From: Hyphomicrobiaceae bacterium
GTDB lineage: Bacteria > Pseudomonadota > Alphaproteobacteria > Rhizobiales > Methyloligellaceae
Reading direction: 5' to 3'
DNA length: 64,000 bases
Assembly (NCBI GenBank): GCA_028066055.1
Contig: JALCBY010000016.1
Span: forward strand, 2,833-66,832
Position numbers and translations under genes: made by a program. The notes beneath the pieces are model-generated. The model made no database searches. It worked only from the letters and a program-made list of their open reading frames with translations, and was not told the DNA's origin. Each line of letters opens with the position of its first letter. Positions within the stretch are counted from its first letter, which is position 1. Shown one piece after another: positions 2,019 through 18,281 of this stretch.

Positions 2019-2774
2019 ATGTCGCAAGCACAGGCACAAGGCCAGCTGGAACTTCAAGCCCAAGCACAGGCCGAACTTCAGAAACAACTGCAGGGTCAAG
2101 GACAGGGCCAGGGTCAAGCTCAAGGGCAGGCCCAGTTTGCGCTTCAGGGCGTGCATCAGGAGAGCGAAAGCTACAACAAGAACGGCAACCTGAACGGCAA
2201 CAAGAACTACAATGAAGTCGATAACGAGGTCGACAACGAAGTCGACAACGAGGTCGAGAACACAGTCGAGAACACAGTCGAAAACGACGTGGACGTTGAT
2301 GTCGACGTTGACGTGGATTTGGATCTGTCCGGCTACATACCGGAAGACAATGATATCATCGATATCGACAACATCGACTTCGATGACGACCTCGATGGTG
2401 CGTTCACGGCCATTGCCAATGTGGTTGACCAGCGCGTTGACGGTGCCGGTGATGACGCGGCGTTCAACGTTCAGCAGATCAACAGCCTGGTCGACAATGA
2501 CTATGCCAAGGAAATCCAGATCAAGGACAACGAGATCGACACCGGTAACGGCAACTATTCCTTCTCGGGAACGGCCACCGGCGGTGAGACCAGCGTCGAC
2601 GACGTGCGAGCATCTATTGATGAGAACGGCAGCATTAGCTCCACGGGCAATGCGCAGGCTGATGCTTCGGTCAATAACGAGTCGTTCGTCCAGAATGTGA
2701 CTCAGGGCGCGAACATTCAGTTCAACGAGTCGTCCATGATCAACGATCAGGATGACGGACTGCTGTCAGGCTGA
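2019..2774 (+). CDS. hyper-acidic low-complexity protein, putative type I secretion cargo 1 (no family recognised)
   Basis: The track ORF is 1875-2774. I prefer ATG 2019 because it is preceded by GAAGGAG (2006-2012), and the residues upstream of it are unlike the rest of the protein. The product is 251 aa with no Cys and no signal peptide. It has (QA/QG)n, NEVD/NTVE/DV arrays and a D/N-rich C-terminal half. It is co-directional with the T1SS genes downstream. Confidence 0.75.
   Translation: MSQAQAQGQLELQAQAQAELQKQLQGQGQGQGQAQGQAQFALQGVHQESESYNKNGNLNGNKNYNEVDNEVDNEVDNEVENTVENTVENDVDVDVDVDVDLDLSGYIPEDNDIIDIDNIDFDDDLDGAFTAIANVVDQRVDGAGDDAAFNVQQINSLVDNDYAKEIQIKDNEIDTGNGNYSFSGTATGGETSVDDVRASIDENGSISSTGNAQADASVNNESFVQNVTQGANIQFNESSMINDQDDGLLSG
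2025..2135 (+). repeat. imperfect in-frame CAR/GSN trinucleotide-type repeat encoding Q-A/Q-G runs
   Basis: The stretch caagcacaggcacaaggccag...cagggtcaaggacagggccagggtcaagctcaagggcaggcccag encodes QAQAQGQLELQAQAQAELQKQLQGQGQGQGQAQGQAQ. Confidence 0.7.
2211..2327 (+). repeat. tandem 12-bp in-frame repeat array (about 9.75 units)
   Basis: The units are aatgaagtcgat, aacgaggtcgac, aacgaagtcgac, aacgaggtcgag, aacacagtcgag, aacacagtcgaa, aacgacgtggac, gttgatgtcgac, gttgacgtggat and ttggatctg. They encode NEVD NEVD NEVD NEVE NTVE NTVE NDVD VDVD VDVD LDL. Confidence 0.9.
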
Positions 2775-2807
2775 CGAGGCTTTGCCTTTATCAAGCACGA
2801 CGGGATC

Positions 2808-2830
2808 CGCGCGGCATCACGCCGCGCGGA
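2808..2830 (+). other. GC-rich stem-loop between the two cargo genes
   Basis: CCGCGCGG (2808-2815), a 7-nt loop (catcacg), then CCGCGCGG (2823-2830). The 8-mer is self-complementary. No U-tract follows, so it is not a canonical intrinsic terminator. It may act as an mRNA stabiliser or attenuator. Confidence 0.4.
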
Positions 2831-2959
2831 CACCCGATCCGACTGGGCACACGGGGCTGAAGGGGCACAACTGAAACGGGGAACGGAGACGACAAAATGA
2901 AATAAGGGGCCTCGACCGGGGCCCGAGAGGCCGATGTAACAGGCTGGGTGGAGACGGCA

Positions 2960-4936
2960 ATGAGCACTGGCGCGGTTACGGAGATTCTCTATCACTTCGC
3001 GGGTTATCTTCATACACTCGGTGAAGCTTCGCGCATCCGCATTGAGTATGAAGAGTATTCTTTTCAGCAAAAGAAACATGAGCTTGAGCTCGACGCGGCC
3101 GTCTCGGTTAGCAAGCGTCATGAGCTGGAGGAGCTAAGCGACAAGCGGATCCCTTTCCAATATTCGGAGAAACCTGCTTTGCCGCTCCGTGACGTGGCGG
3201 GTGACAGGCTGCGGCTGGATCGCCCCGATCCTCTGAATTCCGAGCCTTACGACTTTTTCAAGGCGCCACTCCAGCTGAAGCCTGCTGGGTTCCCCCTCAC
3301 TGTCACGGTAAGCGCGGAGGTGCCGGAGGTTGCCGTCTCCTTCAAGGCCGGCGGTGGCCAAGCCGTAAGCCAGGTCCAGCAGGTCAATTATCTGGTGGAC
3401 AATGACCGTTTCGGGATTCCCGATGGGACGACCGCCGGCGCGTATGATCAGGGCGAGATCGAAGACGCCGTCCTTGAAATGAAGAAGACGGCCGATGCGG
3501 AAACGCCGGAGGATCTTGCAATAACCGAGTTCGACGCGGTGTCTCTCGGCGAAGTCATTGCAAACCGCAACGCGGAATCGAAGCAAGGAGAAGAGACCAG
3601 CGGGGGTCAGGTGGATGCGGGCACCTACGTCAATGGGGTCTTGCTGCCGGAAGGTGGAGAAGTACCCGAGGTGCCTGACAAAGATGAGAGCGAGGCCCCA
3701 AACAAACTCATTGATCAGGCGACACAGTCCGATATCGAAGCCGTGGGGCAAATTGCTGAAACCGGCGGCAACGTATCGGCAAACGTTGCCGGCATTGTCG
3801 ACGTCAACCACACCACCGGGACCATGGCGATCTCCGGTGACTTCCACTCAACCGATGCGATTGTCCAGGTCACCGTCCTCATGGACGATGATGACGTGAT
3901 TCATGCCGGCTACAGGAATATCACCACCGAAACACACGCCAACGAAATGAACAACGTCGCGAAACTGCTCGAGACTGATATTGGCATGTCGAGTTTTGCG
4001 GGCAGCAATGTATTTGCGGGCCTGGAATGGAATGTCGATGTATTCGACGGCGATCTTTACGATGTCCACGCCGTCACCCAGTCGAACTGGCTCCATGACA
4101 ACGATGTCGTCTTTCAGGAGAACACGGCAAGCACCGTCCAGGTATTTGTGGGCGACAACGGCCAGTTCAATGTATCGACGCTCGAGTCCTGGGGCGGGAA
4201 CTACGACCTTGTCGTTGTGAACGGCGACTACCATCAGGCAAATCTCATTTACCAGAAGATCGTGCTGTTCGACGCTGACACGGTCAAGGTTCTCGGAAAC
4301 GGCGTTGGAACAGAAGGACCTGACATTGCTGGTCCGGCCATCTCCACTGGCGAAAACTGGCTTCAGAATGATGCGACGATCAACAATTTTGCGACCGGCT
4401 CCATCAACGATCTGAGCGAGGACTGGGAAGAGTTGATTGGCGATCTGGGCAATCAGCCAGGTGTGATGGATCTCTTCGCGGGCGTGGGCATACCCAATTT
4501 CGGAGACGAGTCGTTCGATGTGCTGGTAATCGGCGGAAACTACTACGACATCAACGTGATCAACCAGGAGATCGTCGTTGCGGATGCCGACACCGTCATG
4601 CAGTTCCTGCCCGGCGAAGGAGAAACCGGTGGGGACGTTGTGCAATCCGCGGAGACAGGCGGCAACATCCTCTCCAATCTTGCCGTGATCGAAACGACGG
4701 GTCCCGTCGCCGACTACTATGTGGGCGGTGACCATTATGACGACGAGATCCTCATCCAGGTCGAGATCCTGGTTTCTGACGATGACGACATTGTTCAAGA
4801 GGACCCCGATGCGCTGGCAACCGAGTTGGCCGTTTTTGCATCGTTGCAGACGGACGATGAGGACGAGACGCACGAGACGTTCCTTCCTGTGAATGACAGC
4901 GCCGGGTCGGACATGCTGGGAGGCGTTCTGACCTAG
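2960..4936 (+). CDS. acidic repeat protein, putative type I secretion cargo 2 (no family recognised)
   Basis: The track ORF is 2948-4936 (GTG). ATG 2960 lies 7 nt after GGTGGAG. The product is 658 aa with no Cys and no signal peptide. It has internal repeat pairs (ETGGN..DDDD(V/I) twice, GGNY..(F/A)DADTV twice) and an acidic C-terminus. The long antisense ORFs inside it are shadows. Confidence 0.85.
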   Translation: MSTGAVTEILYHFAGYLHTLGEASRIRIEYEEYSFQQKKHELELDAAVSVSKRHELEELSDKRIPFQYSEKPALPLRDVAGDRLRLDRPDPLNSEPYDFFKAPLQLKPAGFPLTVTVSAEVPEVAVSFKAGGGQAVSQVQQVNYLVDNDRFGIPDGTTAGAYDQGEIEDAVLEMKKTADAETPEDLAITEFDAVSLGEVIANRNAESKQGEETSGGQVDAGTYVNGVLLPEGGEVPEVPDKDESEAPNKLIDQATQSDIEAVGQIAETGGNVSANVAGIVDVNHTTGTMAISGDFHSTDAIVQVTVLMDDDDVIHAGYRNITTETHANEMNNVAKLLETDIGMSSFAGSNVFAGLEWNVDVFDGDLYDVHAVTQSNWLHDNDVVFQENTASTVQVFVGDNGQFNVSTLESWGGNYDLVVVNGDYHQANLIYQKIVLFDADTVKVLGNGVGTEGPDIAGPAISTGENWLQNDATINNFATGSINDLSEDWEELIGDLGNQPGVMDLFAGVGIPNFGDESFDVLVIGGNYYDINVINQEIVVADADTVMQFLPGEGETGGDVVQSAETGGNILSNLAVIETTGPVADYYVGGDHYDDEILIQVEILVSDDDDIVQEDPDALATELAVFASLQTDDEDETHETFLPVNDSAGSDMLGGVLT

Positions 4937-4986
4937 CGGTCATGCGGGTACTGACGGGCGAACTGATTTAGTGCGGGGTTGGGTTA

Positions 4987-7398
4987 ATGGACGGAGAGCG
5001 GGACACACCAAAATCTGACGTGAATATTCCGGGATCGGAGAGACGCGGCAAAACGGGCGCGCGGCTGAATGGTGAATTTGCCGCCGCCGAACACGACGGA
5101 AGGTTGGTGAAGCACAACGGGCACACCCAAGAGCCGCGCGATGCGCACCTCGCTGCAGGACATACAGTTCACTCCAATGGCGTCGGTGAAAATGGCAATG
5201 GTACGTTCTTGGCGCATGTCGCAGCCGGCGGCGCCAGTGGCCGTGAAGATCGGGCACATAGCGCCAACGGTTCAAGCGATGTAGAGCAGACCGAACGTGT
5301 CCGTCAGGCGTCCGGGGAACGTGGGAACCTATCGGAGCGTGCCGACGGGTTTAATAACGGTTCAGATGAATCCAAAATGCACCGGAACGATGCGGATGGC
5401 GGCGATTCCGAAACCGGCAATGACGTTGTCGAAATCCGGACCAGCGACAACGCCGGTGAATTTCAGCCGCGCGGTCACGACGGCGGCTCAAGCGGACAAA
5501 TTCCCGAAACCGAAGAAGACGAGACGCTCAAGGCCCGGGGCAAGCCGAACGGCGCGTCCGGCATCAATGGATCCGGCGGAGGAAAGAACGGTACAAACGG
5601 GAGTGCCGCGGGTTCGAACGGCGCAAACGGTTCCGGCGGCGCGTCGACCATGGAAAGGCGCACCTCGAACGCCGACTTCCGGGAAATCCTCAGCAAGGGG
5701 TTGGCCGTGTGCCGCCGTAACCTGGTGACCGTCGGCATATTTTCCTTCATCGTCAATATTCTCGTTCTCGCGATTCCAATCTACCTCTTCAACATCGCCG
5801 ACCGCGTCCTCTCCAGTCAGAGCATCGATACGCTTGTGATGCTGAGCATCGTCGTCGCGGGGGCGATCCTGATGCATGTGCTGCTCGATATCGCCCGACG
5901 GATCATCCTGTTGCGGGTTGCGGTCGATATGGAAAGCAAACTCGGCGCTCCGGTGCTCAGTGCGGCGGCGCGTGCGGCACAGGACGGATCGAGCCGCGAG
6001 TTTCAGATCCTCGGTGAGTTGCAGAATTTGCGTGCATTCATTACCGGGCCGGTCATCCTGACCATGTTCGACGCACCCGTAGCGCCGCTCTACCTGCTGG
6101 CGATCTTTATGATCCATCCGCATTTGGGATTTATCGTTTGCGGGACGGTCGTCCTGTTGCTGGTTATCGCGGGTCTGAACCAGCGAACGACGGCGGTGCC
6201 CTTCGGACGTGCGAACGCATTCGCGGCGCGCGCCAACCTTCAGGCAGATGCCATGGCCAGAAACGCGCAGGCGATGAACGCCATGGGCATGATCCCGGAG
6301 GGCGTGAACATCTGGGGCGGCGAGACGGCGCAGTCCCTCAAGTCACAGGTCATCGCTCAGGACCGCAACATACTGCTCGCGGGAACATCGAAGTTCATCC
6401 GGCTGGGCACGCAGATCGCGGTTCTCGGCTGGGGCGGCTATCTGGCCATTCTCGGTGAAGTGACCGGTGGCATGATCATCGCTGCATCGATCGTCGGCAG
6501 CCGCGCCCTTCAGCCGATCGAGGGCTCCATCGAAGGATGGCGCACCTTCGTACAGGCCCGTTCCGCCTACTCGCGCATCAAGGCCCTGCTGCTCAACTCG
6601 CCGCTCAATTTTGACCGGCTTCGGCTGCCGCGTCCCATGGGCCACCTCAATGTCGATCGGGTTCTGTATGTACCTCCGCCGAACAAAAAGGTCATCCTGA
6701 ACGGGGTGTCGTTTGAGCTGCAGCCCGGCGAGTCGCTGGGCATCGTCGGTGCCTCGGGCACGGGCAAATCGACGTTGGGCAAGATGCTCGTGGGTTCGGT
6801 ATTCCCGACATCAGGCAGCGTGCGTCTCGACAGTATGGATTTGCGCAACTGGGATGCTCGGCAGTTCGGCGAGAATGTCGGCTACCTGCCGCAGGATGTT
6901 CAGCTTTTCCCCGCTTCCATCAAGGACAACATCGCCCGCATGCGCAAGGATGCGAGTGATCAGGATATTTTCGATGCCGCAGAGATGGCGGACGTCCACG
7001 GGATGATCTCCGAGTTCGCGCAGGGGTATGAGACGCAGGTGGCGATGGACGGCAGTCCGCTTTCCGGCGGACAGAAGCAGCGCATCGGTCTCGCCCGCGC
7101 CTTCTTCGGCGATCCCCGCCTTGTGGTTCTGGATGAACCCAACTCGAACCTGGATTCGCCGGGCGAGCGGGCGCTCGCCAAGGCGCTGGATGTGGCCAAG
7201 GAGAAACAGATCACGGTGGTTGCCATCACCCAGCGCCCGTCCCTACTCAAGAGCGTCGACAAGATCATGATCCTGAAGAACGGCACCGTTCAGGCGCTGG
7301 GCAGCAGGGACGACCTGATTCCCTTGATCATCAAGGGTAAGCGGGCCAACGGCTCGGCCCAACCGGACGATGACGTGAAATTGATCGATGCAAACTAG
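4987..7398 (+). CDS. type I secretion system permease/ATPase (PrtD/HasD-type) with a ~220-aa low-complexity N-terminal extension
   Basis: The core begins near FREILSKGLAVCRRNLVTVGIFSFIVNILVLAIPIYLFNIADRVL. It has Walker A GASGTGKST, signature LSGGQKQRIGLARAFFGDPRLVVLDEPNSNLD, and a multi-helix TMD. The frame is open from ATG 4987, only 50 nt after the cargo stop. An internal alternative start is ATG 5650 (MERRTSNADF). Confidence 0.9.
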   Translation: MDGERDTPKSDVNIPGSERRGKTGARLNGEFAAAEHDGRLVKHNGHTQEPRDAHLAAGHTVHSNGVGENGNGTFLAHVAAGGASGREDRAHSANGSSDVEQTERVRQASGERGNLSERADGFNNGSDESKMHRNDADGGDSETGNDVVEIRTSDNAGEFQPRGHDGGSSGQIPETEEDETLKARGKPNGASGINGSGGGKNGTNGSAAGSNGANGSGGASTMERRTSNADFREILSKGLAVCRRNLVTVGIFSFIVNILVLAIPIYLFNIADRVLSSQSIDTLVMLSIVVAGAILMHVLLDIARRIILLRVAVDMESKLGAPVLSAAARAAQDGSSREFQILGELQNLRAFITGPVILTMFDAPVAPLYLLAIFMIHPHLGFIVCGTVVLLLVIAGLNQRTTAVPFGRANAFAARANLQADAMARNAQAMNAMGMIPEGVNIWGGETAQSLKSQVIAQDRNILLAGTSKFIRLGTQIAVLGWGGYLAILGEVTGGMIIAASIVGSRALQPIEGSIEGWRTFVQARSAYSRIKALLLNSPLNFDRLRLPRPMGHLNVDRVLYVPPPNKKVILNGVSFELQPGESLGIVGASGTGKSTLGKMLVGSVFPTSGSVRLDSMDLRNWDARQFGENVGYLPQDVQLFPASIKDNIARMRKDASDQDIFDAAEMADVHGMISEFAQGYETQVAMDGSPLSGGQKQRIGLARAFFGDPRLVVLDEPNSNLDSPGERALAKALDVAKEKQITVVAITQRPSLLKSVDKIMILKNGTVQALGSRDDLIPLIIKGKRANGSAQPDDDVKLIDAN

Positions 7399-7423
7399 GC
7401 CAAGCGCGACGGGAGCATCCTGA

Positions 7424-8770
7424 ATGGAAAGAAGCGCACACAATCCCGAATGGTATTCCGAAGTTCCGCGCTCGGCGCGCGGAGCCACGCTGTTCGGAAT
7501 AGCCATAGTTGCCGTAACGATTCTCGGATTTGGAATTTGGGGCTCGACGGCCTTGATCGCCGGTGCGATCGTCTCGACCGGATCTTTCGTCGCGACAGGC
7601 GAAAACAAGATCGTTCAGCACCTGGAAGGCGGCGTGATCGACAAGATCCTGGTTCGTGAGGGTGACGTTGTCGAAAAGGGGCAGGTGCTCGTTCGTCTTG
7701 ACGGGACCGCGTCGAGGACCGAGTTGAGACGGCTTGAACTGCGCGAAGCCACGATGATGGCAATGGAGGCGCGCCTCAAGGCTGAAATGGATGAGAAGGA
7801 CGTCGTCGTCTTTCCCCAGAAACTTCTCTCCCAGGAAATCGATCCCGACTTTTCCGAAATACTGGCGACCCAGCGCCAAGTGTTGAAGGCGCGCCGCAAC
7901 AGCGTGAAGCAGGAGATTGCCACGCTCAAGGAAGGCATGGACGCGCTGGAGCAGAGGGTGAAAGGCGGACGGGTTCAGCTTCAGTCCGTTCACACCCAGC
8001 TTGAGATCTTCGAGCAGGAGCTGGAGTCCAAGTCTGACCTCCTCAAACGCGGGCTGATCCGCAAGCCGGAAGTGCTTGCGCTGAAGCGGGCCAAGGCGAG
8101 CATGCAGGGTGAAATCGGACGTCTGAATGGCGATATCGGCGATGCCCGCGAGCGCATCGCACGCATCCAGGAACAGATCATGAGTGTGCGCAATGATGCC
8201 ATCAAGAGCGTCATCGAGAAGATGCATGAGGTTACGGCCGAGTTGAAGGATGTGCGCGAACGGATCCGCGCGGCGCGGGATGTCTTGGACAGAGTCAATA
8301 TCATCGCGCCGGTGAAGGGCGCGGTTATCCGGCTGAGTTATCACACGCCCGGTGGCGTCATCGAAGCCGGCAAGAACATCATGGAAATTCTGCCGCTGCA
8401 GGAGGAGCTGATCATCGAAGCGCGAATCCAGCCCAAGAACATCGATGGCGTGAAAGTGGGGCAGAGGGCAGCGGTCCGGCTGACGGCGCTGAACCGTCGC
8501 ATTACGCCCATGATTGCCGGTGAGGTGATCTATGTTTCAGCCGACTCGGTTGGTGGCAGCAAACAACAAACAAGCACCGGCGGTGACCCGACGGACGAGT
8601 ACGTCGCACGTATCAAACTGAACGCGCGCGAAGCAGCCGACATTCCCGGTTTCTCGCCCACGCCGGGCATGCCGGCGGAGGTCTATATCAAGACGGCCGA
8701 CCGGACGTTCCTGGAGTATCTGACGAAGCCGTTGCTCGACAGTATGGCACGCGCGTTTCGCGAGTCCTGA
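7424..8770 (+). CDS. type I secretion membrane fusion protein (HlyD family)
   Basis: It has an N-terminal TM helix (TLFGIAIVAVTILGFGIWGSTALIAG), a lipoyl-like VQHLEGGVIDKILVREGDVVEKGQVLVRLD segment, a long coiled coil, and C-terminal IIAPVKGAVIRL...PGMPAEVYIKT. It starts 25 nt after the ABC gene. Confidence 0.9.
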   Translation: MERSAHNPEWYSEVPRSARGATLFGIAIVAVTILGFGIWGSTALIAGAIVSTGSFVATGENKIVQHLEGGVIDKILVREGDVVEKGQVLVRLDGTASRTELRRLELREATMMAMEARLKAEMDEKDVVVFPQKLLSQEIDPDFSEILATQRQVLKARRNSVKQEIATLKEGMDALEQRVKGGRVQLQSVHTQLEIFEQELESKSDLLKRGLIRKPEVLALKRAKASMQGEIGRLNGDIGDARERIARIQEQIMSVRNDAIKSVIEKMHEVTAELKDVRERIRAARDVLDRVNIIAPVKGAVIRLSYHTPGGVIEAGKNIMEILPLQEELIIEARIQPKNIDGVKVGQRAAVRLTALNRRITPMIAGEVIYVSADSVGGSKQQTSTGGDPTDEYVARIKLNAREAADIPGFSPTPGMPAEVYIKTADRTFLEYLTKPLLDSMARAFRES

Positions 8771-8885: not shown

Positions 8886-9503
8886 CTATGCTTGTGCGCC
8901 ATTTCTCGCAAACGAGATTTTGCGGCGTGCCCACAAGAAAAACCGCAGTCCCGCTCCCGACACAAGGACCACGATGAAAACTGCGGACATCGCCGCCTTG
9001 TGCGTCGTCAGGCTTAGCTGATTTTGCAGCGCAACGGCGTAGGAGACCAAGAACAGGAACCACAGATAGTGCATGCCGACGCGATGCAGCCGTTTCCACC
9101 AGCGTCCGAGGAGCTGCATTGCGGTATTGCTGGATGTCGCGGCCATCGCGTAGATCACGACGACGCCAAGTGAGTTTCCGATCAGGCGCGGCATGTTCTC
9201 GAAGACTGATTCAGAAGAGACGGCAAAGAACGCAATGACGAAACCGAAATGAACGCTCAGTGCGATCGCGACACAGAGGCCGAGCGTCCGCCGGCTCGCC
9301 ATCAATTCCTTGTATCCGGTCAGTTCACGCACGGGTCGGGCGAGATAGACCATGAGGAAGCACAAAAAGGCGACGCAGGCGGTCATCCGAACGCCATTGG
9401 TTATGTCATGCAGCGTAAGTCCATGAACGCTCAACACAATCGACAATATGATACCCGCTGACGCCGCCAGGTAGATCGCGGGCGTTTTCGAGATTCTCGA
9501 CAT
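8886..9503 (-). CDS. integral membrane protein (multi-pass; possibly ferric-reductase/MsrQ-like, uncertain)
   Basis: The track ORF is 8886-9572. I prefer ATG 9503 (MSRISKT...), which has GAAGGAG 7 nt upstream. There are several hydrophobic helices with conserved-looking His residues. The functional call is weak. Confidence 0.6.
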   Translation of the reverse strand: MSRISKTPAIYLAASAGIILSIVLSVHGLTLHDITNGVRMTACVAFLCFLMVYLARPVRELTGYKELMASRRTLGLCVAIALSVHFGFVIAFFAVSSESVFENMPRLIGNSLGVVVIYAMAATSSNTAMQLLGRWWKRLHRVGMHYLWFLFLVSYAVALQNQLSLTTHKAAMSAVFIVVLVSGAGLRFFLWARRKISFARNGAQA

Positions 9504-9599
9504 CTGATCAGCTCCTTCAACGGGGCGCAATTCACGACCCGCGGGCGGTGAAATCATGTCGCCGCCGGTCACTTTGTCGTTATTTCAGGGGTCCAGGCT

Positions 9600-11765
9600 C
9601 TATGACATAGAACTTGCCGCGACGGGCACCGCGGCGTTGTTTGCGACATCTGAAGGTACTTCGACCTCTTCAAGATCGAAATAGAATGTCGATCCTTTGC
9701 CGACTTCCGACTCGACATGGATTTCGCTGCCGTGCTTCTCGACGATCGCCTTCACGATCGACAGTCCGAGGCCGGTTCCGCGTCTTGCTCTCGAATCCGA
9801 CGCATCGATCTGGACGAAGCGCTCAAACAACTCGGACCGCTTCGCCGGTGGAATTCCACAACCCTTGTCGATCACAGCGCAGCGCAGGAGGCCATCTGAG
9901 CGCGCGATACGCACGACGACTCTTGAGTTTGGTGGAGAGAATTTTGCCGCGTTGGAGAGAAGGTTCGCGAAAACTTGCGTCAGGCGATTTGGGTCGATAC
10001 GGGCATGGGCCGTCCCGAGACACCCCTGAAGCTCGAACCTGACATTGTGCTCCGCCGCGTATGCGGCATTGTCTGTAATCGCGTCACGCGCAACGGCGAC
10101 AACGTCTTCCACGGCGAAGGCAAACTCCAGTTTGTTGGAGCGAATCTTTTCAACGTCGAGAATGTCATCCACCAATATGGCCAGGCGTTTGGAGTTGCGG
10201 ATTGCCACGTCAAGCAGTGATTTGGCCTCATCCGGCAAATCTCCGATCTCATTGGAATTCAAAAGAAGAAGCGAGCCAGACAGGGAGGTAAGCGGCGTTC
10301 GCAACTCATGGCTGACCACAGAAACGAACTCGTTTTTCACCCGCTCCATGCGCTTGGCTTCCGTAATGTCCTCATGGGTTGTTACCCAACCGCCGTTCGA
10401 AAGTGCCTGGCGGGAAATGCGAATGAAGCGGCCGTCAGTCAGTTCGTGAGTTACGGACGTGTCACCATGTTTGCGATTCCCCCAGGTCAAGCGGTCGTCG
10501 AGATAGGCTTGCGGATTGCCGTCAGCGTAAATCCCGTTGGCGATCCGTCTTTCGACGATCTGTTCTATCGTCATCCCTTGTGTGATCGCGTCGGGGGAAA
10601 GACCATACAGTGTCGCGTAGCGCTCGTTGAAAACGATCAGCCGGTTCTCCCGATCAAACACGCAGACGCCGTGCGACATGTTTTGCAACGCCACATTGAA
10701 ACGCTCGTTCTGATCCCGAAGTTCGTGCTCCGCCCTCATCCGGTGCTCATTTTCGACGGCGAGCTGTTCATGGGAGACCACCGTTTTTTTCAAGCGGTCA
10801 AGCATCGCGTTGAAGGCTTCCGCCAACTCCCGTAACTCTGCGGCGCCTTCGGCGGGAAGCCGCCGGTCGAGGTCGCGCGCCTCGCTTATTTTTCTGAGTT
10901 CCATTGTGAATTTCGAAAGCGGCCTGGTCGTCAGATAGGCAACAAAAAAAGTACCGGCTGCCAGAGCGGCCAGTGCAAGCAAAAGTGCGAAGTAGAGAGA
11001 TCTTTCCAAGGCATTGATGGGTGCCAGCGCGGAAGCCTTTGACTCGGCGACGACAATCGTGAGGTCATAGCCGGGTATCTCGGCGGTTGAGAGGACCCAG
11101 CCCGATATTTCCTTTGCATCGCGTTCGTAGCGACGCGCGAAGCTCAGGTCCGACGCGAAAACCTCACCCGCTTCATCGCGAATCAGCACTGCGTGTGTCC
11201 CAAGTGAAATGGACAGCAACTTTGAAAGTTCCGGTTTGCCGAGCTCAACGACAATCATGCCCTCGGCGAAGCCCTGGTAAACAACCGGTACAGCAAGGGT
11301 AGCACCGCGGGTATCTATGCGAACGTAGTCTTTCTTCTCCTCCATGAGCTTTTTGAGCCAAGGCGCGCCAACAAAGTTGCCGTTCAGCGCGTTCGATGCG
11401 ATCCGGCGTCCTCGATAGTCCGCAAAGCTGATCTTCTCGCCGGATCCCAGACCTGCAACCTGAAGCTGGTTGAAATAAAGCGGGATGTGTACCTCGCGCG
11501 CCTCCATATCGACGAGCCCGTTTATGACGAGGTCATTCGCCGCGACGCTTCTGGCAGCCTGCAGAACAGCGTTCAGTTTGGCCGCGGTTGCGTGTGCGCC
11601 GAACTCCGCATCCTGTTCCAGATTGGATTGCATCTGCTGCAGGAACGAGTGCTCAACCTTCATCTTGGTGACAAGACCGATGATGAGCATTGCCAGGGCG
11701 GCAACGGGCAGAACCCGGAGAAGTACGCGTGGCAGCAACCTTCCGGATTTTCTCCCGGCAATCAT
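9600..11765 (-). CDS. sensor histidine kinase (periplasmic sensor domain - HAMP - PAS - HisKA - HATPase_c)
   Basis: It has two TM segments flanking a ~230-aa periplasmic region. It has a HAMP-like [21 protein letters not shown] segment and a PAS-like [31 protein letters not shown] segment. The H-box is [13 protein letters not shown], and N/G boxes are NLLSNAAKF and [10 protein letters not shown]. Confidence 0.9.
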   Translation of the reverse strand: [721 protein letters not shown]

Positions 11766-13061: not shown

Positions 13062-13451
13062 TCAGGTCTGATGCGTTCCTTTGAGTTGGGCAATGTCGAG
13101 CTGATACAGGGTTGAGTCCTCAGGTACCGTTCGACCCGCGACTACCTTCATCTCTTCCAGCAGACCGTAGAGTGACCGAATCTGCTTCTCATCGGGCTCC
13201 GTCTCCGCGGCCCGGCTTTCAATCAGCGCGTCTTCGAAATCTCGTGCTGCAGTGCTCAACGGCCCGAAACCGAGAGATCCGCTGGAACCGTTTATCTTAT
13301 GAACAATTTCAATGACTTTGCACGTCAGCGCGTTGTAGGAATCGCGTCTTAGGACAGCTTCCGCGAACGTCGCGGCCGCGGTCTCAACCTCGTCTGGCAA
13401 GGAGGCGCAATGTCTGGCCAGTATGGCGCGGAGCTGATCGTTTCCGGACAT
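13062..13451 (-). CDS. histidine phosphotransfer (Hpt) domain protein
   Basis: 129 aa. It carries the Hpt signature IVHKINGSSGSLGF (HxxKG-type phospho-His). Confidence 0.8.
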   Translation of the reverse strand: MSGNDQLRAILARHCASLPDEVETAAATFAEAVLRRDSYNALTCKVIEIVHKINGSSGSLGFGPLSTAARDFEDALIESRAAETEPDEKQIRSLYGLLEEMKVVAGRTVPEDSTLYQLDIAQLKGTHQT

Positions 13452-13461
13452 CCGTTGCTCG

Positions 13462-13848
13462 CTACACCTGCCCGTTCCAGATTGACTGTACCTGCTCGGG
13501 CAGCGTCACCGGATCGAACGGTTTGACAATAACCCCCGCACACCCCAGAGCGGTGTAGCGTTCCACTTCGCTTGGCTGGGCTTTCGCCGTCATGAAGATG
13601 ATCGGGGTGTTCTGAAGTTCGGGAAGTTCCCGTAGCGCCTTGAATGTTTCGATGCCGTCCATACCGGGCATCATCACGTCCAGCAGTATCAGATCGGGTC
13701 TGAAGCCGGGGGCCTTCCGTACCGCTTCCGTGCCGTCCACGCAGACATCGACATCAAAGCTGCCGAGCGTCTCCAGCCCAATCCGCGCGACCTCGCGAAT
13801 ATCGGGCTCATCCTCGACATAGGTGATGCGTTTCAGTGCTTTCGCCAT
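13462..13848 (-). CDS. single-domain response regulator (CheY-like receiver)
   Basis: 128 aa. It has the acidic pocket YVEDEPD, the phospho-acceptor context LILLDVMMPGMDG, and the T and K residues (FMTAK, VKPF). Confidence 0.9.
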   Translation of the reverse strand: MAKALKRITYVEDEPDIREVARIGLETLGSFDVDVCVDGTEAVRKAPGFRPDLILLDVMMPGMDGIETFKALRELPELQNTPIIFMTAKAQPSEVERYTALGCAGVIVKPFDPVTLPEQVQSIWNGQV

Positions 13849-13990
13849 TGTCGCGCCGCGTGCTCCCTCCAGCCGATATCGAACTCTGTATTCGGTTCTG
13901 GTGAGGGAGACTCGTCGAGTCGCAATAAGAATCAGTTAGCGCATGCGTGTGGACTGAGCGGTTGCGGCAAGACTGCCGGAAAGAAACGTC

Positions 13991-14014
13991 ATTCCGCGGG
14001 AAAAATCGCGGAAT
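13991..14014. promoter_or_regulatory. inverted repeat in the divergent promoter region (candidate operator)
   Basis: ATTCCGCG (13991-13998), 8 nt, CGCGGAAT (14007-14014). It lies in the 331-bp gap between the REC gene (-) and the REC/TackOD1 gene (+). Further CGGAAT copies follow at 14019 and near 14108. Confidence 0.3.
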
Positions 14015-14179
14015 TCCTCGGAATGCAGCGGTTTAACGGGTTCGTAACCACGATTTCACATATCCACTAAACCGATGGTTGCAGTGCCAATTCATGCTCG
14101 CGTTTTACGGAATCCTTCCAGTTGCACTCTATTGTCTCGCCCCTGAACCAATCGGGATGCGAGGGAAGGGGTTCACTTG

Positions 14180-15994
14180 ATGACGGCGGCGAAGCGGAAA
14201 GCCATTTCCGGCAACGAATCAACTGCGCGTTCGAAGAGCAAGACAAAATCTTCCAGTGAGGGCTGTGCGGAGGTCGCGCAGCGAATCCTTGTTGCCGAGG
14301 ACAGCCCGGTTACGCAGGACCTGCTGAAACTGGTCCTTGAACAGCGTGGGCATCAGGTCGACGTGGTCGCAGACGGTGAAGCGGCGATAAGAGCTCTGCA
14401 GGGCGGGTCCTACGATACGGTTCTGCTCGATTTTCACCTCCCCAAGGTCGACGGGCTGGAAGTGGCAACCCGGTTCCGCCGGGATAATGCCGGAAAGACC
14501 GCTGCACGGTTTGTTGCGATAACCGCGGATATCAAGGGTCTGCTCAGCCACTCGGCGAACTGCGAAAACTTCGACGAGGTGATCCCCAAGCCGCTGGACC
14601 TGCAGGAGGTTCTCGGCGTAATCGAGCGCGAGCAATCGGACGCGCTCAATGTTGCGAAGACAACCGTCCGCGAAGTCGGGGCCGGGAAAGCGAATGCGCC
14701 CGCAAGTGCGCTATCGGCGAAGTACGAGTATCTGCGTTGGCCGGAGGATTTCAATTCCGAGCGGCTCTCTGCGCGGGGAATGCATGCGAGCCTCTCTGAC
14801 GGTTCCTACGATGCCATCGTGCTGAATGAACCGGCCACCGTTCGTGATCTTTCGGTTATCTGGACCACAAAAACCCTGCACCTGTTGCCGATCATCGACA
14901 TGACGGGTTCGCTGGCGAAGCAGGCTGATGTTGACGGTACAGGTCTGAGCGTCGGAGAGACGGGCGAAATCGACCGTGTGATCGAGGCGTTCAAGTCCCG
15001 GCGGGCGGAATTGCACGACGACCTCGTCTTCAGTGATGATATCGGCGAGAAGCTGATCGGGCGCGTTTTCGTGAGCGGCGGGTCACTGACCGCACGTCAT
15101 GATCACACCAGCCGCGAACTGGTATCTTTCAATACGGTCCTTGATTTCCGCAGCGCCGACAAGGAAATCAGGGATCTCCTGACACGCGGGCTTCTGGCTC
15201 AGGACTTCTTTGATCGTTTCCATGTCTGCGACAGATGCGGGTCCTCGCACTTCAACGTTCGTGAGGAATGCGCCGACTGCGGGTCCTCTCATCTCGAGGA
15301 AGAGGCCTATCTGCATCATTTTAAATGCGCTTATCAGGGGCCGGAGTCGGATTTCCGGCAGGGCGATGATCTCGTTTGTCCGAAATGCCGGATGGAGCTT
15401 TCGCACTTCAGTGTGGACTATGACAAGCCGGGCTCGATGCTGCAGTGCGGAGGATGCGGACACGCCACGTCCGAGCCCGCAGTCGGGTTTGTCTGCATGG
15501 AGTGTGACGCGCACTATGACGGCGATTCGGTTCGGACCCGCGATGTCTTCTCATACGAAATGACGCCGCGCGGGATCGAGTTTGCGAAAGGCGGGCACGC
15601 GCTGCAGGACGGCGGCAATACGGCGCTGCGTTTTGCGGATCTGCCGCTTGCCCTGATCGTCGCGATCAATACCGAGCTGAAAAAACACGAGGCGGACGGG
15701 ACGCAATTTTCGCTGCTGAACATTTCATACCGGAATGGACGCGAGATCGAACAGGCAGAGGGCGTTCGGGCTTTTGAGAAATCGCGCGAGTTTCTGCTGG
15801 AGATTTTCCGCAATACGGTGCGCAAGGGGGATGACGTGGTCAAAGGCAACGCGTCCGACTTCATCCTGCTGAAACAAACGCCCAATGGCGAAGCGCGTGC
15901 CGGACTGGAAGATTTGAAGGCCGAAGCGTCCTCGTCCTTGCGCGTGGATCTCGGTTTGGAGTTTGAACTCTTCGGGCCTGAGGACTTCAGCTAG
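14180..15994 (+). CDS. response regulator: REC - linker region - multi-CxxC zinc-ribbon (TackOD1-like) - degenerate GGDEF-like domain
   Basis: REC: RILVAEDSPVTQ..VLLDFHLPKVDG..IPKPL. There are five CxxC pairs between 15227 and 15505 (CDRC, CADC, CPKC, CGGC, CMEC), as in the TackOD1 output domain. The C-terminus is GGDEF-like, with GNASDF in place of GGDEF and RKGD (RxxD) five residues upstream. I prefer ATG 14180 (the track gives TTG 14177). Confidence 0.8.
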   Translation: MTAAKRKAISGNESTARSKSKTKSSSEGCAEVAQRILVAEDSPVTQDLLKLVLEQRGHQVDVVADGEAAIRALQGGSYDTVLLDFHLPKVDGLEVATRFRRDNAGKTAARFVAITADIKGLLSHSANCENFDEVIPKPLDLQEVLGVIEREQSDALNVAKTTVREVGAGKANAPASALSAKYEYLRWPEDFNSERLSARGMHASLSDGSYDAIVLNEPATVRDLSVIWTTKTLHLLPIIDMTGSLAKQADVDGTGLSVGETGEIDRVIEAFKSRRAELHDDLVFSDDIGEKLIGRVFVSGGSLTARHDHTSRELVSFNTVLDFRSADKEIRDLLTRGLLAQDFFDRFHVCDRCGSSHFNVREECADCGSSHLEEEAYLHHFKCAYQGPESDFRQGDDLVCPKCRMELSHFSVDYDKPGSMLQCGGCGHATSEPAVGFVCMECDAHYDGDSVRTRDVFSYEMTPRGIEFAKGGHALQDGGNTALRFADLPLALIVAINTELKKHEADGTQFSLLNISYRNGREIEQAEGVRAFEKSREFLLEIFRNTVRKGDDVVKGNASDFILLKQTPNGEARAGLEDLKAEASSSLRVDLGLEFELFGPEDFS

Positions 15995-17262
15995 TGTGGG
16001 CGAGCGCGGCAGACGGGTATAACTTCCTCACCTCCCAGAGCTGGGTGGGGATCCTCGGCCTGTTCTGGTTCACCCTTGTTTTCGACATTCCGAGATACGC
16101 TCTGGCGTTCGTCGCAGCCGCATTTTTCGGGCGGGTTGGCGCAGCTCGAACCGATGTTCAGGGTTTTGCCGGACGGGTCAGCGTCGTCATCGCCGGCCAC
16201 AACGAGGCGGATGCAATCGAGCGTTGCGTCAAGTCGTTCCAGGAGCAGAGTCGGCCGCCGGACGAGATCGTTGTTGTCAGCGATGGCTCGACCGATGGCA
16301 TGGAGAACACCCTACGCGAATTGCAGCGGAGGGGTGCCGTGGATCAGGTGCATTGCACCCACCTGCGCGCCGGAAAATCCGCCGCGTGCAACCTTGGTGA
16401 GCGCTACGCGACCGGCGAAATCATCGTCATCGCGGACTGCGACTGCACCTACGAGCGACATGCTCTCAAGGAAATACTGGCGCCATTCGAAGACCCCGCG
16501 ATCGGTGCGGTCTCTGGCAACATCCTCGTCCGCAACGCCTCCGAAACCCTCATCGCAACCTTCACGGCGATCGAGTATCTGATCAGCATCTCTCTCGGCA
16601 AACAGGCGGCGGCTCTGACGGACCACGTGACCTGCGTTTCCGGTGCATTTGGAGCCTTTCGCAAGACGGCCTTGGATCAGGTTCAGGGCAACGACGTTGG
16701 CGGCGGCGAGGATCTCGACATGACCCTGCGGCTGCGCAAGGCGGGCTGGAAGATCGCCTTCGAGCCGGATTCAATTTGCTACACCGATACGCCCGCCACG
16801 TTCAGCGCGCTCGTGCGCCAGCGCTTCCGCTGGGAGCGCGACGCGGTGCGCATCCGGTACAGGAAGCACGCCGATCTGATGAACCCCTTCTCGGCGAACT
16901 TTCAGTTGCACGAACTCTATCACGAGGTTGAATTCCTGATCTTCCACATTCTCGGGGCGATTCTCCTTCCCGTTTATGTGATCTGGCTGTTTCTGGCCTA
17001 CGGGGAAATGGCGGTCGTCATTCTTCTGTCGGTTCAGATTGGCCTGTTCTCTCTGGACCTGCTCTCGTTCATTCTTGCCGCATGGGCGACGCCGAAAGCG
17101 AACAGTCTGGGACTGCTGCCCTACACCTTCGGCTACAGCTTCTTCAACGGCTTCGTCATGCGCAACGTCAGGCTCGCCGCCTACCTGCAGGAATGGCTCT
17201 TCAACGCTTCCGCGGAAGATGAGTATCTGCCGCAGAAGGTCAGACTTACACGGAGATGGTAA
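15994..17262 (+). CDS. processive family-2 glycosyltransferase (PgaC/NodC/cellulose-synthase-like membrane synthase)
   Basis: It has N- and C-terminal TM helices. The motifs are VVSDGSTDG (D), IADCDC (DxD), GGGEDLDMT (TED-like) and QRFRWERD (QxxRW). The GTG start overlaps the upstream stop by 1 nt (TAGTG). Confidence 0.9.
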   Translation: MWASAADGYNFLTSQSWVGILGLFWFTLVFDIPRYALAFVAAAFFGRVGAARTDVQGFAGRVSVVIAGHNEADAIERCVKSFQEQSRPPDEIVVVSDGSTDGMENTLRELQRRGAVDQVHCTHLRAGKSAACNLGERYATGEIIVIADCDCTYERHALKEILAPFEDPAIGAVSGNILVRNASETLIATFTAIEYLISISLGKQAAALTDHVTCVSGAFGAFRKTALDQVQGNDVGGGEDLDMTLRLRKAGWKIAFEPDSICYTDTPATFSALVRQRFRWERDAVRIRYRKHADLMNPFSANFQLHELYHEVEFLIFHILGAILLPVYVIWLFLAYGEMAVVILLSVQIGLFSLDLLSFILAAWATPKANSLGLLPYTFGYSFFNGFVMRNVRLAAYLQEWLFNASAEDEYLPQKVRLTRRW

Positions 17263-18263
17263 TGGTCAAGTCACTGAGGAAACGTCCACGGCCAGACGCG
17301 CTGAAAACGGAACAGCGCAAGGCAACGAACAGGACGGGGCGCCTCGTCTATCTGTTCATGCTCGGTGCCCTCGCGCTCGCAGGCGTCAATTTCCTGTTCG
17401 GCGATCTGGTCTTCTTGCGTGCCGACGGCCTCGTTCTGCGCGACAAGACGACGGTCTCGACGACCTATCTGGCGCGTGTGGAAAGCGTCGATGTCGAGCC
17501 GGGGCAGATGGTGTCGGCGGGAAGCCCCATACTGCACGTCCAGTCGTCGGAAATTCTGGAGCGGCTGGCGGAACTCTCCTCAAAGAAGGCTTCGCTGACA
17601 GCCCAGGCCGCGGAGTTCAAGATGCGGGCGGCGAAGGCTACCAGTCTGCTTCCGCTGGCGAAGAAGCGCGAAAGCGAATCGGCGAAGATGCTGGAAAAGG
17701 TCGGCGATCTGTCCGGACGGAATGTTCTCACATTGGCGCAGTATGGCGACGCCCTGCGTGCACGCTTCGATGCGCGGCAGTCGTTCGTTGAGATCGAGGC
17801 CCAGGAGCGCGCGCTCAAGGGAGAGCTCGAAGCCATTGATTCAGCGCGGGACGATGCGGATAAGGCGCTCGACCGGCTGCGCGATCACTATGCCGATGGC
17901 GTTGTCCAGGCGCCGGTGGACGGTGCGATCGGAACGTCGGTTCCGTCCCGCGGTGACGTCTACCGTCCCGGCGAGACCATTCTCGAAATCTATTCCGGCA
18001 AGGCGTATGTCCTAGCATATCTGCCGCGCCGTTATCTTTTTGGGGTAAAGGTGGGAACCGAGGTTAAGGTCAAAAGCGGCCGCCACAAGGCGACGGGCGT
18101 CATTTCCGATATTCTTCCCGTGACGGCTGCCCTGCCGAACGAATTCCAGAACAGTTTCAAACCGCGGGACCGCAACCAGCTGGCGCGGATCACATTCGAC
18201 AATCCGACTTCATTCCCGCTGCATGAGAAGGTTTCGATCGGTCTGGATTACGATCTGTTCTAG
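17256..18263 (+). CDS. HlyD-family periplasmic adaptor-like protein partnered with the GT2 synthase
   Basis: It has an N-terminal TM (LVYLFMLGALALAGVNFLF), a lipoyl-like VESVDVEPGQMVSAGSPILHVQS segment, a coiled coil, then VVQAPVDGAIGT..GETILEIY. The start is ATG 17256 or ATG 17262; the latter overlaps the GT2 stop (TAATG). Confidence 0.85.
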   Translation: MVMVKSLRKRPRPDALKTEQRKATNRTGRLVYLFMLGALALAGVNFLFGDLVFLRADGLVLRDKTTVSTTYLARVESVDVEPGQMVSAGSPILHVQSSEILERLAELSSKKASLTAQAAEFKMRAAKATSLLPLAKKRESESAKMLEKVGDLSGRNVLTLAQYGDALRARFDARQSFVEIEAQERALKGELEAIDSARDDADKALDRLRDHYADGVVQAPVDGAIGTSVPSRGDVYRPGETILEIYSGKAYVLAYLPRRYLFGVKVGTEVKVKSGRHKATGVISDILPVTAALPNEFQNSFKPRDRNQLARITFDNPTSFPLHEKVSIGLDYDLF

Positions 18264-18281
18264 GAGGATTGGCCCTACGCC

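Follow-up and report, generated by a model that had tools for sequence, protein, structure and literature searches.

The window analysed here is the whole stretch of 64,000 nucleotides (nt) from a Hyphomicrobiaceae bacterium (GenBank assembly GCA_028066055.1, contig JALCBY010000016.1, positions 2,833 to 66,832 of the forward strand), and the positions given below are those of the window. At 2019-8770 it carries a type I secretion system (T1SS) locus in which the genes of an ABC exporter and its membrane fusion protein (MFP) are preceded by two genes, A and B, coding for hyper-acidic, cysteine-free proteins. A and B belong to a real, conserved and unannotated class of T1SS cargo with an unusual sequence architecture; their function we infer. 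Export of both proteins by the adjacent T1SS is highly probable on the sequence indications presented here. The fuller reading, according to which A and B are exported as cargo, B folds outside the cell, A co-assembles with it and the two provide an extracellular structural material, has in our estimate a probability of about 0.55.

The four genes lie on the + strand, each with an ATG start: A at 2019-2774 (251 aa), B at 2960-4936 (658 aa), the ABC exporter gene at 4987-7398 (803 aa) and the MFP gene at 7424-8770 (448 aa). These open reading frames (ORFs) and the spacers of 185, 50 and 25 nt that separate them, in that order, bear out the row of four same-strand genes with short gaps described in an earlier reading of this DNA made from its letters alone (hereafter the sequence-only reading). 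The lengths of A and B had been counted there from preferred starts and are confirmed; ATG 2019 is the right start of A, because a GGAG block lies 6 nt upstream and because both the block and the ATG are kept in two related loci.

Thirteen related loci, from at least six genera, show the same arrangement, in which A and B always stand immediately 5' of the PrtD-type ABC and HlyD genes. The conservation of the four-gene block, a check proposed with the sequence-only reading, is thereby established for the order A-B-ABC-MFP. These loci belong to soil and aquatic Hyphomicrobiales: an ENA Hyphomicrobiales chromosome, Blastochloris tepida, Bradyrhizobium paxllaeri, Nitrobacter sp. Nb-311A, Methyloceanibacter marginalis, Mesorhizobium retamae and several Hyphomicrobiaceae and Xanthobacteraceae metagenome-assembled genomes (MAGs). 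A locus search from a ten-sequence alignment of B gave nine loci. In two of the 13 (L008 and L012) the contig ends inside or beside A or B. The Mesorhizobium contig begins within the 3' end of an A-like gene. The core of the ABC exporter is 70-92 per cent identical to that of 12 related loci and 63 per cent identical to that of L012. When the window is compared with locus L001, identity reaches 92 per cent for the ABC core and 84 per cent for the MFP, and 55 and 58 per cent for A and B. The two upstream genes diverge faster than the transporter, which is the pattern expected of exposed cargo.

The class of the transporter is secure. The last two genes had been identified as a PrtD/HasD-type ABC exporter and a HlyD adaptor, and both exceed the cutoffs of the corresponding models: the ABC protein scores 682.3 bits against TIGR01842 (type_I_sec_PrtD; cutoff 510) over residues 239-778, and the HlyD-family MFP (7424-8770, +) scores 387.9 bits against TIGR01843 (cutoff 208.65), matches the HlyD_3 and HlyD_D23 domains and has a hydrophobic segment visible in its N-terminus. 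The exporter is assigned by the PrtD model and not by those of LssB or HlyB; its closest solved relative is Aquifex PrtD (PDB 5L22, E 1.5e-109), aligned from ABC residue 232. The core, composed of the transmembrane and nucleotide-binding domains of the PrtD class, is encoded at 5692-7398 (+). Both motifs quoted previously are present, the Walker A sequence GASGTGKST at residue 588 and the signature/Walker B stretch at 692. The exporter carries no C39 or C39-like domain, as the sequence-only reading had supposed: Pfam detects none at E<=1, and the alignment of HlyB begins at HlyB residue 150, past its C39-like domain.

The first 235 residues of the exporter (4987-5691, +) form a low-complexity extension rich in G, N, S, D and E, which is neither C39 nor C39-like and matches no Pfam domain at E<=1. 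Every one of the 13 related loci has a disordered extension of 93-235 aa 5' of the ABC core. In 12 loci the first ATG of this extension is no more than about 110 nt away from the stop codon of B; the extension ORF traced in L008 overlaps the 3' end of B. The extension consists of 63-79 per cent G/S/N/A/P/D/E/T/Q across loci. A poly-G or N-G-A-type (GANG/NGH) tract closes it in ten of the 13, immediately ahead of the conserved 'RRSxxxEFRDVL' sequence with which the core is entered; in the window the closing tract is of the (NGx)n/poly-G kind. Since the frame stays open across divergent loci, we argue that the extension is translated. As exporters of the PrtD and HasD kind lack an N-terminal domain (PMC8277102), the extension marks a distinct exporter subclass. 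One may speculate that it serves for cargo capture or for spacing bulky acidic cargo.

Proteins A and B share the general properties of T1SS cargo. Neither contains a cysteine, their net charges are -45 (A) and -94 (B), and the calculated pI is 4.05 for each. Their N-termini, MSQAQAQ... and MSTGAVTEIL..., are not hydrophobic, which agrees with the absence of a signal peptide noted before, and neither protein has a transmembrane segment. Among the members of the two families used for this count, 56 of 91 (A) and 70 of 116 (B) are free of cysteine (median 0, maximum 5-6), so that the lack of this residue is a family-wide tendency rather than an invariant; both families carry a net charge of roughly -0.11 to -0.12 per residue. 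Neither protein gave a match in Pfam or NCBIfam (E<=1), PADLOC or the PDB, and the comparison of their profiles with PDB sequences returned only noise (E >0.19). The family searches that had been called for thus connected A and B with no characterised non-secreted family, and no hidden Markov model found RTX repeats in them. The RTX nonapeptide GGxGxDxUx, reported absent after inspection by eye, was indeed found by a regular expression in neither protein, and no Pfam or NCBIfam model reports it at E<=1, including PF00353, the Pfam RTX repeat model. Over the families the expression occurs in 0 of 91 A members and in 1 of 116 B members, the latter by chance.

The C-termini of both proteins, which correspond to the tails quoted earlier, are conserved, first acidic and then hydrophobic, and disordered in the AF2 models. 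T1SS cargo carry uncleaved C-terminal signals and cross the envelope unfolded (PMC3034196; PMC8277102). The proposal of the sequence-only reading that A and B are secreted cargo of an unrecognised class is therefore supported, as far as sequence can tell, by synteny, divergence, tails and the lack of any family match. Public annotation does not recognise the class: every A and B member is named 'hypothetical protein' at NCBI, and UniProt gives the name 'Type I secretion protein' to a few B members. Protein B itself is identical to the 'hypothetical protein' MPJ78_11975 of a Hyphomicrobiaceae MAG.

Gene B (2960-4936, +) codes for a repeat protein of a large family. A word-indexed search returned ten relatives, and a profile search of 1.84 billion cluster representatives returned 768 at E<=1e-3 and 517 at E<=1e-30; these 768 clusters at 50 per cent identity are almost all full length, about 650 aa. 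The AF2 model of B, built from a 116-sequence alignment, has a mean pLDDT of 78.8 and a pTM of 0.77. Residues 121-615 are predicted to be almost wholly beta, mostly with a pLDDT >90, and residues 1-120 and 620-658 are disordered in the model (pLDDT <50). Structure prediction, which had been recommended in a search for beta folds, accordingly gave a confident all-beta protein in the case of B; for A it gave disorder and no secondary structure. Within the disordered first 120 residues, B has a conserved N-terminal motif, TEI..HF.GY...R.R..YE (residues 1-31; 2960-3052, +), of which E8, F13, G15, R25, R27 and Y30 do not vary in the ten closest homologues; over the 116-sequence alignment this remains true of F13, and G15 is nearly invariant.

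The beta region of B contains five homologous modules of ~55-70 aa, M1-M5 (residues 258-616; 3731-4807, +), recognised by hhalign and in the AF2 model. Pairwise hhalign comparisons of their sub-alignments give probabilities of 92-99 per cent and E-values from 7e-7 to 4.5e-18. Each module consists of four strands joined by turns of 2-4 residues and bears the signature TGxNxLxNxAxI ... YDxxxxxGxY ... IxQxNxLxDxD. The glutamines Q303/374/432/536/600 and the DxD pairs 309/311, 380/382, 438/440 and 542/544 are invariant in the ten closest homologues; in the 116-sequence alignment Q303, Q432 and Q536 are invariant and D311, D382, D438, D440, D542 and D544 nearly so. A half module, M0 (residues 124-146; 3329-3397, +), is a beta hairpin ending in VQQVNYLVDND, with AF2 strands at 124-130 and 135-146; over about residues 135-155 it resembles the last strand of M1-M4 (hhalign probability 80-94 per cent). 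The model suggests a solenoid-like fold. The disordered tail (residues 617-658; 4808-4933, +), a putative uncleaved T1SS signal, consists of 'ALxxELVAF', a variable acidic linker and a family-wide terminal D-h-h-G-x-h-L-T, here 'SDMLGGVLT'. In this tail L619, E622, F626 and D651 are nearly invariant.

Gene A (2019-2774, +), the other candidate cargo gene, has at least 220 unnamed homologues of ~260-290 aa in Bradyrhizobium, Nitrobacter, Afipia, Bosea, Blastochloris, Methyloceanibacter and Pseudorhodoplanes. Its product is predicted to be disordered: the AF2 model from 91 sequences has a mean pLDDT of 49.7 and conveys little about structure. Residues 3-101 (2025-2321, +) nevertheless follow a single dipeptide register, passing through QxQx, NxNx and V-D-N-x to VDVD... 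stretches. Glutamine occupies 89 per cent of the odd and 0 per cent of the even positions between residues 3 and 39, asparagine falls on odd positions between residues 53 and 65, and (V/L/I)-D/E-N-x tetrads follow, leading to the end VDVDVDVDLDL. Glutamine, asparagine and V/L/I stand on one parity in 88 of 89 family members, against about 25 per cent expected if the three were phased independently. The length of the tract varies from 99 to 134 residues and the parity is kept, and therefore insertions and deletions in A come in twos. At the DNA level, tandem repeats occupy 2209-2314, with a 12-nt unit (6.6 copies, N-E-V-D) and a 6-nt unit (4.8 copies, V-D); they offer a ready mechanism for even-numbered, register-preserving indels. 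As its positions are conserved, A is not a generic low-complexity sequence. A conserved register of 100 residues is very unusual in a bacterial protein, and its strictness argues for a structural constraint that is met only in an assembled state, which on sequence grounds would imply an assembled tract such as an extended beta ribbon, a polar zipper or an acidic sheet. Downstream of the tract, a C-terminal block, 'ADA..Q.AF.QNI..GANIQFN', and an acidic tail (residues 214-251; 2658-2771, +) make up a putative secretion signal. F223, G230, N232, Q234, F235 and N236 of the block are invariant, and the tails of the family are rich in aspartate (24 per cent of the last 12 residues) with L/I/V at the end.

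The two cargo candidates have limited sequence elements in common. The strand motif FNVQQINSLVDND, at residues 146-161 of A (2454-2501, +), was found by hhalign in both proteins: the profile of A matches the half module M0 of B with a probability of 91 per cent (E 1e-6) through a QxNxLxDND strand motif. The C-terminal block of A, with its 'QNI..GANIQFN', weakly resembles the start of the B modules (E 1.5e-4). A thus has one copy of each of the two signature elements of the B repeat. Global homology between A and B was considered and rejected, the common part being a motif of 15-18 columns; when whole profiles are compared, E is 0.0036 over 18 columns.

These elements can be assembled into the following scenario, which is the one we favour. 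A and B would be made without signal peptides and would be kept unfolded in the cytoplasm by their extreme acidity, to which disorder is added in the case of A. The ABC exporter would recognise their uncleaved, disordered C-terminal tails, and the proteins would pass, with the C-terminus leading, through the ABC-MFP complex and an unlinked channel of the TolC type. Once outside the cell, B would adopt its fold, a rod or plate that resembles a beta-solenoid and is composed of five and a half ~55-residue modules, whose stacked Q/N ladders and DxD pairs would make cation-assisted folding likely. A, disordered when alone, would dock on B or co-assemble with it, and the two would form a cell-surface or extracellular structural material, for instance a fibre, a coat or a matrix.

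Several observations weigh against this scenario. A simple cargo model explains neither the conserved N-terminal motif of B nor the conservation of the upstream genes X and Y and, in most loci, of a GNAT-TPR gene (these genes are described below). The similarity between A and B is confined to 15-18 columns, and the predicted topology of B could be that of a solenoid or of a meander. Foldseek comparison of the B model with the PDB and BFVD returned nothing significant (best PDB match E 0.066, TM ~0.05); the best BFVD match, equally non-significant, is a Tetraselmis virus protein (E 0.0046, TM ~0.05). The top matches, non-significant as they are, do speak for the solenoid, all of them being beta-solenoids: CsgA (8c50), FapC (9u4u), SufBD, tapirin, tailspikes and AlgE4. 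We found no paper mentioning the locus tags or accessions of A and B family members that were searched, and none on the family under non-RTX Bradyrhizobium T1SS or T1SS functional amyloids. Finally, no TolC/OEP family is represented among 20 tested ORFs >=330 aa of the window, as the sequence-only reading had remarked, and none was seen in the related loci. Within the window the system is incomplete in this respect, but TolC genes unlinked to T1SS are common, and for this reason the missing gene does not exclude a working system.

The disorder of A leaves room for a different division of labour, in which B alone would be the functional exported product and A either a co-secreted nucleator or cap, comparable with CsgB, or a holdase inside the cell, which would prevent B from folding and hand it over to the disordered N-terminal extension of the exporter. 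The prediction for A is disorder throughout, it carries single copies of both signature elements of the B repeat, and the strong hairpin after its stop codon could set a different A:B stoichiometry; HasA, which needs SecB for export by a T1SS, provides a chaperone precedent (PMC8277102). We consider this explanation unlikely, since A has a conserved, acidic, hydrophobic-ended C-terminal tail of its own, as cargo do, and with a net charge of -45 it would be a strange holdase for a client that is just as acidic. Its nucleator version is really a sub-case of the scenario of co-exported, co-assembling A and B.

The hairpin in question lies in the A-B spacer (2806-2828, +), 32 nt past the A stop codon, and is a perfect 9-bp GC stem, CCGCGCGGC-ATCAC-GCCGCGCGG. 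It is present in both the minimum free energy and the centroid folds of 2775-2959 (z = -2.3), and no T-run follows it. From these predicted folds it may be an mRNA stabiliser or an attenuator that sets the A:B ratio, and it could raise this ratio.

Two further genes accompany the system. Gene X is cut by the window edge, so that only its 5' part is seen (2-196, -); it codes for a soluble protein of ~190-200 aa and belongs to the core of the locus: each of the 12 loci for which the upstream sequence exists has a copy, with 41-91 per cent identity (69 per cent over 65 aa with the X of L001, tblastn). Its invariant blocks are WSNNES, TLNTTRAR and RNExNH. The last fits the Rx4H motif of HEPN RNases, and PADLOC gives a weak Csx1 match (E 0.002). 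X may thus be a HEPN-like Rx4H protein, but this is a lead that Pfam and the PDB profile search do not support. Its divergent partner Y (302-793, +; ~163 aa), detected by tblastn, varies from ~165 to ~195 aa across loci and is 67 per cent identical to the Y of L001 and 35-47 per cent identical to the copies of Blastochloris, Nitrobacter and UBA7697; tblastn did not find it in the Bradyrhizobium-type loci L003 and L009. Neither X nor Y has a match in Pfam or in the PDB profile search. The X/Y pair is inverted as a unit between clades and accompanies the T1SS in nearly all relatives.

Two co-encoded cargo proteins beside a dedicated T1SS, with small conserved genes nearby, recall the Caulobacter system CdzAB-CdzC/D-CdzI, a precedent for a two-protein, aggregate-forming T1SS bacteriocin (PMC5380434). 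A and B could by this analogy be a two-component secreted toxin or contact-dependent bacteriocin, with X and/or Y conferring immunity or neutralisation. Their fast divergence relative to the transporter would suit such a role, and judging from its sequence the amphipathic VDVDVDLDL strand of A could line a cation-selective beta pore. Like the present locus, the Cdz system is a T1SS operon of an alphaproteobacterium in which two cargo proteins are encoded together; those of Cdz form surface aggregates (PMC5380434). The Cdz peptides, however, are hydrophobic, have a glycine zipper and measure 84-86 aa, whereas A and B, at 251 and 658 aa, are large, hyper-acidic and free of a glycine zipper, with a signal that is C-terminal in type; the N-terminal regions of the Cdz cargo resemble signal peptides, and both unprocessed and mature forms exist (PMC5380434). 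X and Y show no clear transmembrane helix (maximum KD19 0.9-1.6), whereas CdzI, the immunity protein, is transmembrane. X moreover shows one of the highest degrees of conservation in the locus (up to 91 per cent), unlike a co-evolving immunity protein, Y was undetected in L003 and L009, and the two are transcribed divergently from each other and not with the cargo genes. On the size and acidity of A and B and the properties of X and Y, membership in the Cdz-like bacteriocin class was rejected, and the toxin explanation appears improbable.

That A and B are not exported at all and act as cytoplasmic or inner-membrane-associated accessory or regulatory proteins, the true cargo being encoded elsewhere, seems very improbable: we know of no T1SS that needs accessory proteins like these, neither protein has a transmembrane segment or a regulator match in Pfam or NCBIfam, and adjacency in 13 loci, acidity, low cysteine content, disordered conserved tails and fast divergence fit cargo and not machinery, even if secretion is deduced from sequence, B has a conserved N-terminal motif of a kind that T1SS signals do not require and T1SS can export unlinked substrates, for which the export of the Rap proteins by PrsDE of Rhizobium is a precedent (PMC9298526).

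Returning to A and B as exported cargo, the system is most readily compared with the PrtDEF, HasDEF and AprDEF T1SS, with which it shares the ABC core, the MFP, adjacent genes for acidic cargo and C-terminal tails of the uncleaved type. It differs from them in the 93-235 aa extension of the exporter, which PrtD and HasD do not have, in the absence of a linked outer-membrane factor gene and in its cargo, which are not proteases, lipases or hemophores. HasA offers an example of a non-RTX cargo of the HasD/PrtD exporter class (PMC8277102). By analogy, the system described here probably works like non-RTX T1SS such as those of HasA or Rap/Ply.

The Rap/Ply cargo of the rhizobial PrsDE system are not known to have RTX repeats; Rap proteins carry Ra/CHDL cadherin-like domains, and the genes of PrsDE cargo are mostly dispersed in the genome. 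A and B, unlike these, match no Pfam domain, and their genes are strictly linked to the transporter. PrsDE of Rhizobium leguminosarum is described as a PrtD-type T1SS of rhizobia by which proteins of the extracellular matrix are exported (PMC9298526).

With RTX proteins, A and B have in common their acidity, low cysteine content, repeats, link to a T1SS, conserved aspartates in beta-strand repeats and C-terminal signal. The logic is likely to be the same, unfolded inside and folded outside, but by analogy and not by homology: the repeat described here is ~55-70 aa long and has Q/N ladders and DxD pairs, whereas the RTX repeat has 9 aa and GGxGxD turns. LapA-like adhesins are another group of T1SS cargo; they are very large repeat proteins and possess a folded N-terminal retention module, a LapG/LapD control pair and a BTLCP-linked T1SS. 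This class was rejected, as the N-terminal 120 residues of B are predicted to be disordered and the ABC exporter fits the PrtD model; general Pfam scans of the locus genes turned up no LapG/LapD-type family.

A resemblance to curli CsgA/CsgB and to Fap is more a matter of architecture. Here too a major repeat subunit is combined with a smaller partner that has repeat elements in common with it, the Q/N-rich beta-strand repeats are of the type 'Q...G.N...N.A', and CsgA (8c50) and FapC (9u4u) are the top Foldseek matches of B. These matches are non-significant, however (E 0.066-0.12, TM ~0.05; E 0.066 and TM 0.04 for CsgA), the present repeat is two to three times longer, and export would be by the T1SS that this locus encodes, not by Sec plus CsgG or FapF; a CsgG/E/F apparatus is the one proper to curli. 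Homology to curli was rejected: there is no Curlin_rpt Pfam match, and hhalign against Escherichia coli CsgA gives a probability <1 per cent.

A more specific and rather doubtful idea, which we put forward tentatively, is that A and B make up a hitherto unknown T1SS-exported, self-assembling beta material specific to Hyphomicrobiales, such as a functional-amyloid-like fibre or a surface lattice. The modules of B would in that case stack as a wide Q/N-ladder solenoid; the tract of A would be a polar zipper or an acidic beta ribbon, possibly binding cations or mineral, and the exporter extension and X/Y would control biogenesis. Should this be true, ordered beta assemblies outside the cell would have a new route of biogenesis, and the question of how non-RTX cargo remain unfolded until export would have a new answer.

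T1SS biology rests largely on RTX cargo and on their Ca2+-driven beta-roll folding, which accounts for the unfolded state of these proteins in the cytoplasm and their folding once exported; few non-RTX cargo have been well studied. The B family, with 768 clusters at 50 per cent identity, and the A family, with at least 220 members, make a sizeable cargo class without a solved relative, and B brings a new ~55-residue beta repeat. Carriers include the cultivable genera Bradyrhizobium, Nitrobacter, Blastochloris, Afipia, Bosea and Mesorhizobium. The class is useful for studying how non-RTX cargo are recognised and held export-competent, and whether a T1SS can build ordered extracellular beta assemblies; the tails are short candidate secretion tags for alphaproteobacterial hosts. 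Four features go beyond what the sequence-only reading had contained: the internal repeats of B, the register in A, the exporter's N-terminal extension and the conserved upstream genes.

Divergent from A, a protein of 127 aa (1152-1535, -) has a Zn_ribbon_IS1595 domain as its only domain (PF12760, E 5.7e-12); the Pfam scan shows no transposase catalytic domain in it. It is syntenic in L001, L005, L006 and L007 (Hyphomicrobiaceae clade), with 68-83 per cent identity, and a GerE/LuxR gene takes its position in L003, L004, L009, L010, L011 and L013 (Nitrobacteraceae, Xanthobacteraceae). From its sequence it looks like a candidate domesticated DNA-binding regulator rather than a transposase remnant. 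Between this gene and A lies an AT-rich promoter and 5' untranslated region of 480 nt (1536-2018, +), with three GGGTACGT boxes and a leader block. The boxes, at 1648-1655, 1680-1687 and 1815-1822, are the only copies in the 64 kb (0.7 expected). L005 has the same GGGTACGT triple with the same spacing of 31-32 and 135 nt, and a three-locus alignment shows that the boxes and the leader sequence GTCGCCGACGTAGAAGATTGG are conserved. GGGTACGT and GTCGCCGACGTAGAAGATTGG are candidate operator and leader elements on this sequence basis. The leader and the operon have no Rfam match, a sigma-70 scan found no promoter, and a terminator scan gave nothing above background and no convincing + strand terminator within the operon.

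Directly 3' of the MFP gene, nine of the 13 related loci have a gene for a FemAB-like fusion of a GNAT domain (Acetyltransf_6) with TPR, at 16360-18267 in L002, 16488-18047 in L003 and 16458-17978 in L004. According to tblastn it is absent from the window, and it is also absent from the closest relatives. The domain content of its product suggests that it may be a cargo-modifying enzyme.

In the window, the T1SS locus is followed directly by a gene for a ferric-reductase-like membrane protein (8886-9572, -) and by an ORF of 721 aa (9600-11765, -) that resembles a membrane histidine kinase by sequence alone. Since neither is kept in the related loci, these neighbours are probably outside the system. 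Further downstream, 13062-19505 is a separate signalling and exopolysaccharide-like cluster, with an HPt-like ORF, a response regulator, a response regulator with a TackOD1 output domain, a family-2 glycosyltransferase, a HlyD-like adaptor and a PilZ-HisKA histidine kinase.

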